Shown here piece after piece: positions 24,001-27,000 of a stretch of 36,877 nucleotides of DNA. Every line of letters begins with the position of its first letter. Position 1 is the stretch's first letter. The position numbers were made by a program. Source of the stretch: a virus (lineage: Duplodnaviria; Heunggongvirae; Uroviricota; Caudoviricetes); IMG/VR virus record IMGVR_UViG_2874927903_000002; one strand, written 5' to 3'.

Positions 24001-27000
24001 GCTTACCGCTGCCGTTAATCAGGTTCACCGCCGATGTACCTGTCTCCGGCAGGGTAACCTCACGGTCCAGCGTCAGGGTGCGGGTGGCAGCATCAATGGA
24101 CAGGACACGTCCGCCGGTCAGGGTCCCGGCATAGTCATTATCACAGATTTCAATAATGTCACCGGGTGTGTGCCGCAGCCCCTGAGACCCGAGCGTGAAG
24201 TCCACCGTCTGCGTTTCCAGCAGTTCGGTCTTTATCACCCACAGTCCGGCACGGTGGGCCTGACCGCGGCTGGTACAGCCGAACGCGTCCATCTTCAGCA
24301 GATTGCGCCCGTAGCGCAGTATGGCTTCCGGGTCTTCCACCAGTTCCGTGGAGGTCTGCCAGCCGTTCTGCGGGTCGGTGTAATTCACCTCCACCGCCGT
24401 GTGCCGGTCCTTCAGGGCACTGAAGCTGTAGCGGAACCCCACGCCGTTATCATCCACCACCACATCGCTGTTGGTGTACGGCCACACCACATCCGACAGG
24501 CGGTCCTGAACAAACGTCAGCATCTGGCCGTTCCATACCGGCATACAGCGCATCGCAGAGCAGAAATCACTGAGAACGTCCCACGCCTTACGCTGTTGTG
24601 CCAGGTACGCATTAAAGGTCATCCGCGGCTCGGTCCCCCGAAACCATCCGGGACCGTCTGGTCGCAGTACTGCCCGATGGCATACAGCGCCCACTTGTCC
24701 ACATCCGCCGCCCCCAGACGTTTTCCCATGCCGTAGCGCGGGTGAGTCAGCATGTCCCACAGGCACCAGGCCGGGTTGTTGCTGTATGCCGGTTTCAGAC
24801 TGCCGTCCCAGATACCACTGTACGTGCGTTTTTCCGGGTCATAGTTTGACGGCACCTGGATGATGCGACCGCGGATATGGTAGTTCACCGTCATCTGCTG
24901 ACCACCAAACTGCTCCGCATCCACCTGCATCCCCACAATGGCCGTGTTCGGGTAGCACTGTTTCACATCGATGATTTCGGTGTATGACGACCACAGCGTT
25001 CTGTTCTGCAGCTGGTCCGTGGTGCTGTCCGCCGTCTCCCTGACCATCCGGATGTTAAAGGGGCGGGGAGGCAGATTATCCAGAATCACCGAGGCCAGGA
25101 ACTGTGAGGTGGTCTTGCCGTTAATGGTGACGTCCTTTTCCGTCACCCAGCGGCCATTACGCTGTAACTGAATCAGAATCCGGACAGAGGAAGGATTACG
25201 GTCGCCCTTTGACGTGGTCTGCACCAGTGACTGCACCCCGAAGGTAACCCGCAGGCGGTCAATGTTCGCGGACGTAATGGTGCGCGTCACCGGTTTTGCC
25301 TTCGTCACTTCCACGCCCAGTCCGGTTTCAGCTCCGGAGGACTCAAAGCCTTCCGGTGGTGTCTGCTCCTGCTCCCCGGCACGCCAGACCGCGGTCACAC
25401 CGTGTATCACGGGATTACCGTCCGTGTCCGTCAGCGGGGTTTTGTTCACCAGAATACTCTGCAGGCCTTTCACCGGGCCTTCTATCGGTCCCTCACCAAT
25501 CGCATCAATCACGCTCATCATCTGCGTGGATTTGAGATTGTCTTTCGCCTCACGCGGTGTGTGCGCCCTGCCGCCACCTTTGCCCATTACATCACCTCTT
25601 ACCGTGATAATTGTTCACTCACAAAAACAACAGGCACCTCACCGGGTGCCTGCGTCATGACGGAATAAAATTTCTGAATATCTTCACATTTTCACACACT
25701 GACTGTGGCGCTTATAATTTCGCTGCGTTAGTGTTTTTTTGCCCGAGTAACAAAAACAACTCCTTCACATTGATCTTCATTTGTCTGTCCCCGCAGCTCC
25801 GCGATCACTGCGGGATTTTTTTATGTTTTATCCCTGTCGCCCGATAACCACGACCTTTCCGCCCCCGCCTTCATCACGGGTGCTGATGTCCTGGGATATA
25901 CGGCGGGAGCCAACCAGCATTTCCCCGTAAGGCACCGGCATCGGGTTCCCCTGGGCAATCATGTTATCCAGCGAGGAAAAGTACGTGTTCTGTCTGCCGT
26001 TATCCGTTGCGCGGTAATCCGGTGTTTTTGCCTTCGGGGCCAGCATCTGGGCCACACCGCCCAGAATCATGCTGGCTCCAAGTGAAAACAGCATCGTGGT
26101 GGCAGAAAAACCACCGGCTGCCAGGGCTGAACCCCATAACGCCATTGATGCCCCGGCAGTGAAGAAAGAGCCCACGATGGCTGCCGCCCCCAACACAATC
26201 TGCAGTCCACCCTTTCCGGCCCCGGCCAGTCGCGGCACAATGTGGATGACCGTTCCCTCACCCAGCTGTTCGTGAAGACGGGCATACACCGCCTCCGGTG
26301 CCGTGTCATCACCGGCAATACGTATCTGGTACCAGCCTTCGTTCATCTGACGGCGAAAGCCCGGCATCTGCATCGACAGGGCGCGAATGGCTTCCGCTGC
26401 CGTGTTCACATACAGGCTGAGGCGGCGGCCAAATCGTTGTAAATCCCCGTGAAGGCAGATGCGTGCCAGTGGCGGTGACGCCAGACAGAATGCGTTCGTC
26501 GTTGCCATTTTTCGGAATACCTCTCCCGTTTACTCAGTTGTTCAGGCAGATGGTGAAGCAGCTCACCGTTGCCGCAGTAAATGGTGGCATGGTTCGGTAC
26601 CGAAGCACCAAAGCAGCACAGCAGAATATCGCCCGGCTGTGCAGAGGACAGGGGCACCCGGTAAAAGCCGGTGACCGCCATATTGTCCAGGTACAGGTTC
26701 TGGCCGTTGCGCCACCAGTCATCCTCGCGATGAAAATCCGGCATATCAATTCCCGCCAGATGGTATGCATCCCGGAACAGCGTGTAACAGTCCGTCACCC
26801 CGTGCTCAAAGCGCCGTCCTGTCAGATGTGGCACACAGCGGAATTTATGAATTTCCCCCGGCAGACCAGCCACCAGGGCAGTGCGCTTTTTATCTGCAGC
26901 CGCCGGTCAGCCTCGCTCAGCCAGGGCAGCTCACCGGGATGACTGTGGACCAGTGCCACAATCTCCCCCTGCATCTCTGCCCGCAGCCAGTCTTCCGGTG

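Follow-up and report, generated by a model that had tools for sequence, protein, structure and literature searches.

The small RNA (sRNA) PasB of enteropathogenic Escherichia coli (EPEC) was described in 2021 as E2348CN_0006, an 83-nt transcript of prophage PP6 that is encoded on the minus strand of strain E2348/69 from 1466343 to 1466261 (Pearl Mizrahi et al. 2021, Sci Adv, Table S6; PMC8550237). Here, we compare this RNA and its relatives with the spacer between homologs of tail genes I and J in a 36,877-nt stretch of DNA from a tailed phage (IMG/VR record IMGVR_UViG_2874927903_000002), which as a whole is called the window below. In E2348/69, PasB was seen by northern blotting with probe AATCCCGCAGTGATCGCGGAGCT, is listed with the orientation "(> <) >", is more abundant in overnight static lysogeny broth (LB) than in Dulbecco's modified Eagle medium (DMEM), and depends on Hfq for its stability, with log2 fold changes of -6.8 and -2.4 in an hfq mutant under two conditions (PMC8550237). 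Ligation of interacting RNAs followed by their sequencing (RIL-seq) recovered 37 interactions of PasB on Hfq, and the accessible part of the published list of partners includes the mRNAs of ler, the bfp and per genes (bfpB, bfpI, and perB), espC, ftsZ, galE, fabR, ffh, glk, ygeV, and yibT as well as the 5' untranslated regions (5' UTRs) of tolC and ydbJ (PMC8550237). A preprint by Zhu, Shabalina and Storz (2026; bioRxiv 10.64898/2026.05.13.724894) found 1,158 PasB hits, all in Escherichia and Shigella, placed the gene inside a phage structural-gene operon, and called its function still unknown.

In enterohemorrhagic E. coli (EHEC), Tree et al. (2014, Mol Cell; PMC4104026) had mapped Hfq binding by crosslinking and analysis of cDNAs (CRAC) and reported the peaks EcOnc22, EcOnc23, and EcOnc24 in prophages Sp15, Sp14, and Sp11, respectively, of the O157:H7 strain Sakai. 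These RNAs are encoded on the plus strand, give a northern band of ca. 85 nt, and are destabilized without hfq (PMC4104026), and a review from 2021 gives the targets of EcOnc22 as unknown.

We report that an sRNA gene which had been spotted within a phage tail operon from raw sequence alone is real. Our main result is a confirmation: the EHEC relatives have been in the literature since 2014, PasB itself since 2021, and a study of its distribution since 2026. To this we add a link between PasB and EcOnc22-24, a candidate seed, and an invariant block upstream of the promoter, all of which are handles for functional work on PasB, and we set a minus-strand hairpin apart from the sRNA unit.

PasB in the spacer between tail genes I and J

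The tail operon of the window runs on the minus strand, and its list of open reading frames (ORFs) leaves a spacer of 240 bp (25588-25827) between the stop codon (25828-25830) of a 226-aa homolog of tail assembly gene I (25828-26508, minus strand) and the start codon (ATG, 25585-25587) of the 5' part of a homolog of tail tip gene J (24619-25587, minus strand). This bears out the gap that the sequence-only reading had delimited, though its premise that I and J adjoin each other in phage lambda was wrong: lambda gene I ends at 15444 and J starts at 15505, which leaves 60 nt, and the sRNA module is absent there. All 240 bp of the spacer are identical (100%) to positions 1466256-1466495 of E. coli O127:H6 E2348/69 (NC_011601) in reverse orientation, where the spacer carries no annotation and lies between genes annotated as "tail assembly protein" (the equivalent of gene I) and "gpJ". 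Converted to window coordinates, the PasB record becomes 25740-25822 on the plus strand (83 nt) with its 3' end at the last U of the predicted U-tract, and the window has a single match to the complement of the northern probe (25795-25817). The spacer holds a separately transcribed small regulatory RNA gene that has already been described as PasB. A small transcription unit on the plus strand, opposite to the tail operon, is what had been proposed from the sequence, and the published RNA matches it in strand and in ending at the predicted U-tract.

We consider it very likely (roughly 90%) that the spacer is a moron-type insert with pasB as the gene of an independently transcribed, Hfq-dependent, and trans-acting sRNA that runs against the late tail operon. 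Its features agree with morons in the sense of Juhala et al. 2000, i.e., extra DNA compared to the 60-nt gap of lambda, its own promoter and terminator, and an atypical G+C content (43% vs. 56-63% in the flanking genes). A sigma-70 promoter would start the RNA near 25725 (or at 25740, to judge by RNA-seq coverage in EPEC), with an activator probably bound to the invariant block upstream. The terminator at 25790-25822 would then provide a U-tail that together with the hairpin recruits Hfq. PasB would be made from the uninduced prophage, and its unpaired center (25761-25783) may pair with host and virulence mRNAs, e.g., at the start codon of tolC or inside ler and fabR, most likely to repress their translation. 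The literature on the identical sequence establishes the RNA itself, its 3' end at the predicted U-tract, its dependence on Hfq, and its chimeras with numerous mRNAs, while we infer where it may start, where it may pair, what the upstream block may do, and the direction of its regulation.

The initial proposal had been an antisense or independent unit. Its independence holds up, and the published partners point to action in trans via Hfq, not to an antisense role alone. If PasB acted mainly in cis, its target would be the stretch of late mRNA between I and J, and pairing there would reduce or time the expression of J, e.g., via RNase III cleavage. The locus itself gives full complementarity to ca. 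100 nt of the late mRNA directly after the stop codon of I, and the position and orientation at the I-J junction are strictly conserved across phages. However, the ribosome-binding site of J is more than 130 nt away and does not overlap the RNA, which moreover builds up in lysogens without induction, when there is no late mRNA, depends on Hfq, and forms chimeras with many unlinked mRNAs. We therefore regard cis antisense action as unlikely for the main role of PasB and as possible for a second one.

We aligned 12 copies of the cassette obtained by BLAST, and 80 loci were picked via protein I; these two sets are unbiased regarding the motif upstream of the promoter. A further 128 units (72 of them distinct) in viral contigs were picked by this very motif, so that its conservation is meaningless in that set. 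The sense (minus) strand of the spacer could encode a small protein from near 25783 (MKINVKELFLLLGQKNTNAAKL; MKINVKEL...), which would explain why AATCTTCAT and AACTCC are conserved. In its favor, the window and Sakai differ by an in-frame 6-nt indel and by several third-position changes within the first eight codons, and one phage record has a hypothetical protein annotated here. Yet only 24 of 53 distinct alleles have the ATG, the others showing ACG or ACA in its place, the C-termini are scrambled by frameshifts and vary in length, and the scan found no promoter on the sense strand. We have therefore rejected a conserved sense-strand peptide and view such a protein as highly improbable. The spacer is non-coding, and, as lambda lacks the module, it is no universal feature of the junction either.

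Promoter, terminator, and the hairpin at the junction

The predicted sigma-70 promoter of the sRNA lies at 25691-25718 on the plus strand, with a -35-like element TTCACA (25691-25696), a 16-nt spacer, and the -10 hexamer TATAAT (25713-25718), i.e., with 11 of 12 consensus positions. From it, we predict a start near G25725 and a primary transcript of 98 nt (ca. 25725-25822). The intrinsic terminator (25790-25822, plus strand) consists of the stem CCCGCAG/CTGCGGG (25790-25796 and 25808-25814) around an 11-nt loop and a run of seven U (25816-25822); the terminator scan returned it as a stem up to 25814 followed by ATTTTTTT. Both elements had been noticed in the raw sequence and were found again at these places by consensus scans. 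Across 2.5 kb, these scans gave two promoter-like and four terminator-like sites compared to 1.0 and 1.5, respectively, in shuffled sequences, and because these counts are near background the consensus matches alone are only suggestive.

The comparison of alleles is more informative about the terminator. Each of the 53 distinct alleles has a G+C-rich hairpin directly followed by five to eight U, and among these the stems CCCACAG/CTGTGGG and CTCCCGT/ACGGGAG carry compensatory changes. Single-sequence folds of the alleles have the terminator as their only common structure. A Rho-independent hairpin with a U-tail of at least 5-6 nt is typical of Hfq-dependent sRNAs and is found at 25790-25822, which is likely the Hfq-binding module of PasB. 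A non-functional spacer with promoter and terminators arising by chance, as the scan counts taken by themselves would allow, can be dismissed, since an RNA has been detected from the identical sequence and in two pathotypes by published northern blots and crosslinking, and since the promoter block and terminator are conserved across many diverged copies.

Immediately upstream of the promoter, a block of 30 nt (GGAATAAAATTTCTGAATATCTTCACATTT; 25662-25691, plus strand) is invariant across alleles; it is A/T-rich and resembles an UP element. Its consensus, GGAATAAAAWTTCTGAAnnTCTTCACATTT, shows no change among the 12 BLAST copies, while the transcribed parts of these copies differ by up to ca. 25%. 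The -10 hexamer varies (TATAAT, AATAAT, or TATCAT) at a constant distance from the block, and the sequence between the two is variable as well. We think that a regulator or activator of the sRNA promoter probably acts at this block. Within it, TcTGA-N6-TCACA (25673-25688) matches the CRP site TGTGA-N6-TCACA at nine of ten positions and would be centered at about -44.5 from the predicted start, with -41.5 or -61.5 as the canonical positions. It is the sole match with up to one mismatch in the window, where ca. 1.2 are expected by chance, so that the window alone gives no statistical support for a CRP site. The rise of PasB in glucose-free stationary LB is compatible with control by CRP, and equally with other regulators, and serves as a lead only.

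The sequence-only reading had also described a second hairpin with a T-run near J on the minus strand. The hairpin is present (25620-25653, minus strand): its arms CAGGCACC (25631-25638) and GGTGCCTG (25645-25652) are followed by UUGUUUUUGU, and the terminator scan of the minus strand reports nine pairs from 25653 to 25630 and then TGTTTTTGTG. It lies ca. 30 nt upstream of the start codon of J, folds strongly (z = -3.0), and has a compensatory stem change in other phages (CAGGCATC/GATGCCTG). It is not part of the sRNA unit. The 60-nt spacer of lambda has an equivalent hairpin with a U-run (GAAACCGCCUGCGGGCGGUUUUGU) at the same relative position close to the start of J, which sequence and fold both show clearly though the terminator scanner missed it. 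The hairpin thus belongs to the I-J junction and is either older than the sRNA cassette or independent of it, and the cassette sits between the stop codon of I and this hairpin. It could be a terminator for polymerase that is not modified by Q or an element of mRNA processing or stability. A common variant of the junction, seen in phage ASU11 (L010, 305-505) as well as in many IMG/VR loci, has a different, bidirectional hairpin (AAACCCCGGTATC...GATACCGGGGTTT) in place of the J-proximal hairpin region, and an additional ORF for a hypothetical protein of 66 aa lies between the sRNA cassette and J.

A candidate seed in a varied cassette

Exact complements to PasB nt 1-98 (25725-25822) were counted in ten partner fragments from the RIL-seq data of E2348/69. 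They concentrate on nt 37-59, i.e., on UCCUUCACAUUGAUCUUCAUUUG at 25761-25783 of the plus strand, which is unpaired in the predicted fold and probably the seed of PasB. The longest of them are 11 nt in fabR (AATGTGAAGGA), 10 nt in tolC (CAAATGAAGA, spanning -3 to +7 of the start codon), and 9 nt each in the 5' UTR of ydbJ (TGAAGATCA) and in ler (TGTGAAGGA), the last of which also has two copies of AATGAAGA. A complement of at least 9 nt is found in four of the ten fragments compared to a mean of 0.8 for shuffled PasB, which reached four in 0.8% of trials, and the antisense strands of the same ten fragments have no complement of at least 9 nt. This counting was used instead of RNAduplex, which for PasB and ler had returned a long duplex rich in loops that did not surpass shuffles.

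The 3' half of the candidate seed is complementary to AUGAAGAU, a start codon followed by a lysine codon. We propose that this half (AUCUUCAU), which is common to the alleles, may be able to cover start regions with AUG-AAG, and that the 5' half would be allele-specific. In EHEC, hybrids obtained by crosslinking and ligation with subsequent sequencing (CLASH) use a corresponding but different stretch, CCAUAACGUU.

Comparison of the copies shows how the cassette varies around these elements. Its transcribed part falls into several types with up to ca. 25% divergence plus indels, which suggests that BLAST-based surveys of PasB underestimate the variety of the family. AAYTCC and TAATCTTC are conserved in the sRNA body, and AACTCC and AATCTTC in the seed region. 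Conservation of promoter and terminator around an unpaired center that is conserved only in part is typical of an Hfq-dependent base-pairing sRNA. As a tentative extension that we hold to be possible though less likely than its opposite, PasB and EcOnc22-24 may be alleles of one much more varied cassette instead of separate, strain-specific sRNAs. Its regulatory block (possibly a site of CRP or of another activator) and its terminator would be fixed, as would one half of the seed, an "anti-start-codon" part (AAUCUUCAU) complementary to AUGAAGAU, while the other half of the seed would vary such that each allele would reprogram different host mRNAs.

The module occurs in mosaic surroundings, as tandem copies, and beside sodC. 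Six IMG/VR loci (L151, L152, L176, L214, L217, and L219) have an ORF for a Cu/Zn superoxide dismutase (sodC-like) on the sRNA strand directly upstream of the sRNA body, and two of them (L176 and L214) lack the sRNA promoter block, so that the sRNA body would be the 3' end of the sodC transcript. Tandem sRNA cassettes at the I-J junction are 179 bp apart in L019 (9949 and 10128), L074 (4151 and 4330), and L094 (7423 and 7602) and 471 bp apart in L060 (4543 and 5014). Their copies have different body types, one of them with a different terminator (CTCCCG...CGGGAG). Tandem pairs and the sodC fusion suggest that the cassette can be borrowed as a 3' UTR or was derived from one. Insertion sequences interrupt the cassette directly after the invariant TTCACATTTTCACAAACTGA in L014 and L065, and L216 has an IS66-like element in place of the promoter.

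When one genome per species was scanned with the upstream block, the cassette turned up only in E. albertii and in three short contigs (460-3408 bp) of unrelated genera, i.e., Asaia platycodi (L014), Parendozoicomonas haliclonae (L015), and Streptomyces flavalbus (L017), which are most likely contaminating E. coli DNA.

Several observations weigh against a trans-acting sRNA gene as we have described it or against parts of this reading. The predicted transcript of 98 nt is longer than the 83-85 nt reported, so that transcription would start further downstream or the 5' end would undergo processing. Taken as a whole, PasB folds no more stably than shuffled sequences (z = -0.64), and 19 alleles aligned with MAFFT gave no consensus structure in RNAalifold, i.e., no conserved 5' structure. 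Regarding the seed, the fragments of ftsZ, glk, galE, and yibT are without a complement of at least 7 nt to the candidate, and the ten fragments were analyzed by perfect-match k-mers only. The papers on PasB and EcOnc22 defer function to future work. Finally, the closest match in a complete genome to the surrounding 10 kb is only 96.5% identical, and we assume that the sRNA is expressed in the organism of the window itself.

Relatives at the junction and other prophage small RNAs

The PasB locus of E2348/69 agrees with the window in all 240 bp of the spacer, in strand, in its I-like and J-like neighbors, and in the 3' end at the U-tract, while its host prophage is PP6. The prophage of the window is not PP6, with flanking tail genes that are only ca. 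94% identical and frameshifted. J, K, and the tape measure gene H are each broken into two ORFs, at 24635 (J; 22115-24766 and 24619-25587), 26855 (K; 26406-26873 and 26822-27409), and 29491 (H; 28191-29693 and 29684-31153) of the window. Each split is a single-base change in the length of a homopolymer (C5, C5, and T5) compared to PP6 of E2348/69, and reflects either sequencing errors or the decay of a defective prophage. The sRNA cassette is intact despite these frameshifts.

Beyond PasB itself, many Shiga toxin (Stx1- and Stx2-) converting phages have I-J spacers with 76-78% identity to that of the window, and Sp15, Sp14, and Sp11 of Sakai carry a spacer with 78% identity at the same location. 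The coordinates of EcOnc22, EcOnc23, and EcOnc24 each fall within a 240-bp gap between a tail assembly gene and a host specificity gene, both on the minus strand. Taken at face value, those of EcOnc22 (Table S2) lie upstream of the promoter, i.e., on its wrong side; the published Sakai coordinates of EcOnc22-24 are ca. 135 nt lower than those of NC_002695.2. The EcOnc northern probe is complementary to the plus strand directly 5' of the terminator (L002:4863-4897), and the CLASH hybrid read GCCTGAAAAATAACTCCATAACGTTAATCTTCA, which also maps just 5' of the terminator, is assigned to 2902717-2902749; probe and read reveal this offset, and the EHEC RNA therefore corresponds to the same unit as PasB. 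EcOnc22-24 are like PasB in their place in the I-J spacer, their orientation, their size of ca. 85 nt, and their Hfq dependence. The upstream block and terminator stem are identical to those of PasB, and the AATCTTCAT motif is held in common. However, the body differs, including a 6-nt indel, the 5' leader is divergent, and so is the first half of the seed (CUCCAUAACGUU against CUCCUUCACAUU). Because leader and first seed half differ, the targets of EcOnc22-24 are probably different from those of PasB. On this comparison, PasB and EcOnc22-24 appear to be allelic forms within a single, varied family of sRNAs at the I-J junction. This link appears to be unstated in the two Pas papers, since the RNAs with EHEC homologs flagged in the table of Pas RNAs are PasA, PasD, and one more, with PasB not among them (PMC8550237), and EcOnc is never named in the 2026 preprint on PasB (bioRxiv 10.64898/2026.05.13.724894).

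Other known RNAs are more distant. A search of the whole window against Rfam at gathering score gave no match, including to AgvB, AsxR, Esr41, and IsrK, and the best sub-threshold match of the region at E ≤ 10 reached 22.9 bits with a threshold of 52. HnrS (EcOnc10-12) and PasC were considered as identities of the RNA and rejected as different loci. CA-rich runs had prompted the idea of a GcvB mimic like AgvB, which was rejected as well, as AgvB sits at the PR' site and is unrelated. AgvB and AsxR (Tree et al. 2014) are likewise short, Hfq-binding RNAs borne on prophages, with their own promoter and terminator and expressed in the lysogen. Unlike PasB, they are located downstream of PR' and not in the tail operon, have no sequence or Rfam similarity to it, and sponge core sRNAs, whereas the chimeras of PasB are mostly with mRNAs. 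HnrS (EcOnc10/11/12; Poudyal et al. 2026, PMC13502914) is likewise multicopy, Hfq-associated, and encoded among prophage late genes in both EHEC and EPEC, though it differs from PasB in its length of 66 nt, its locus, and its defined target (PMC13502914). By repressing hha, it provides a worked example of how an RNA of this kind acts in trans at a ribosome-binding site (PMC13502914).

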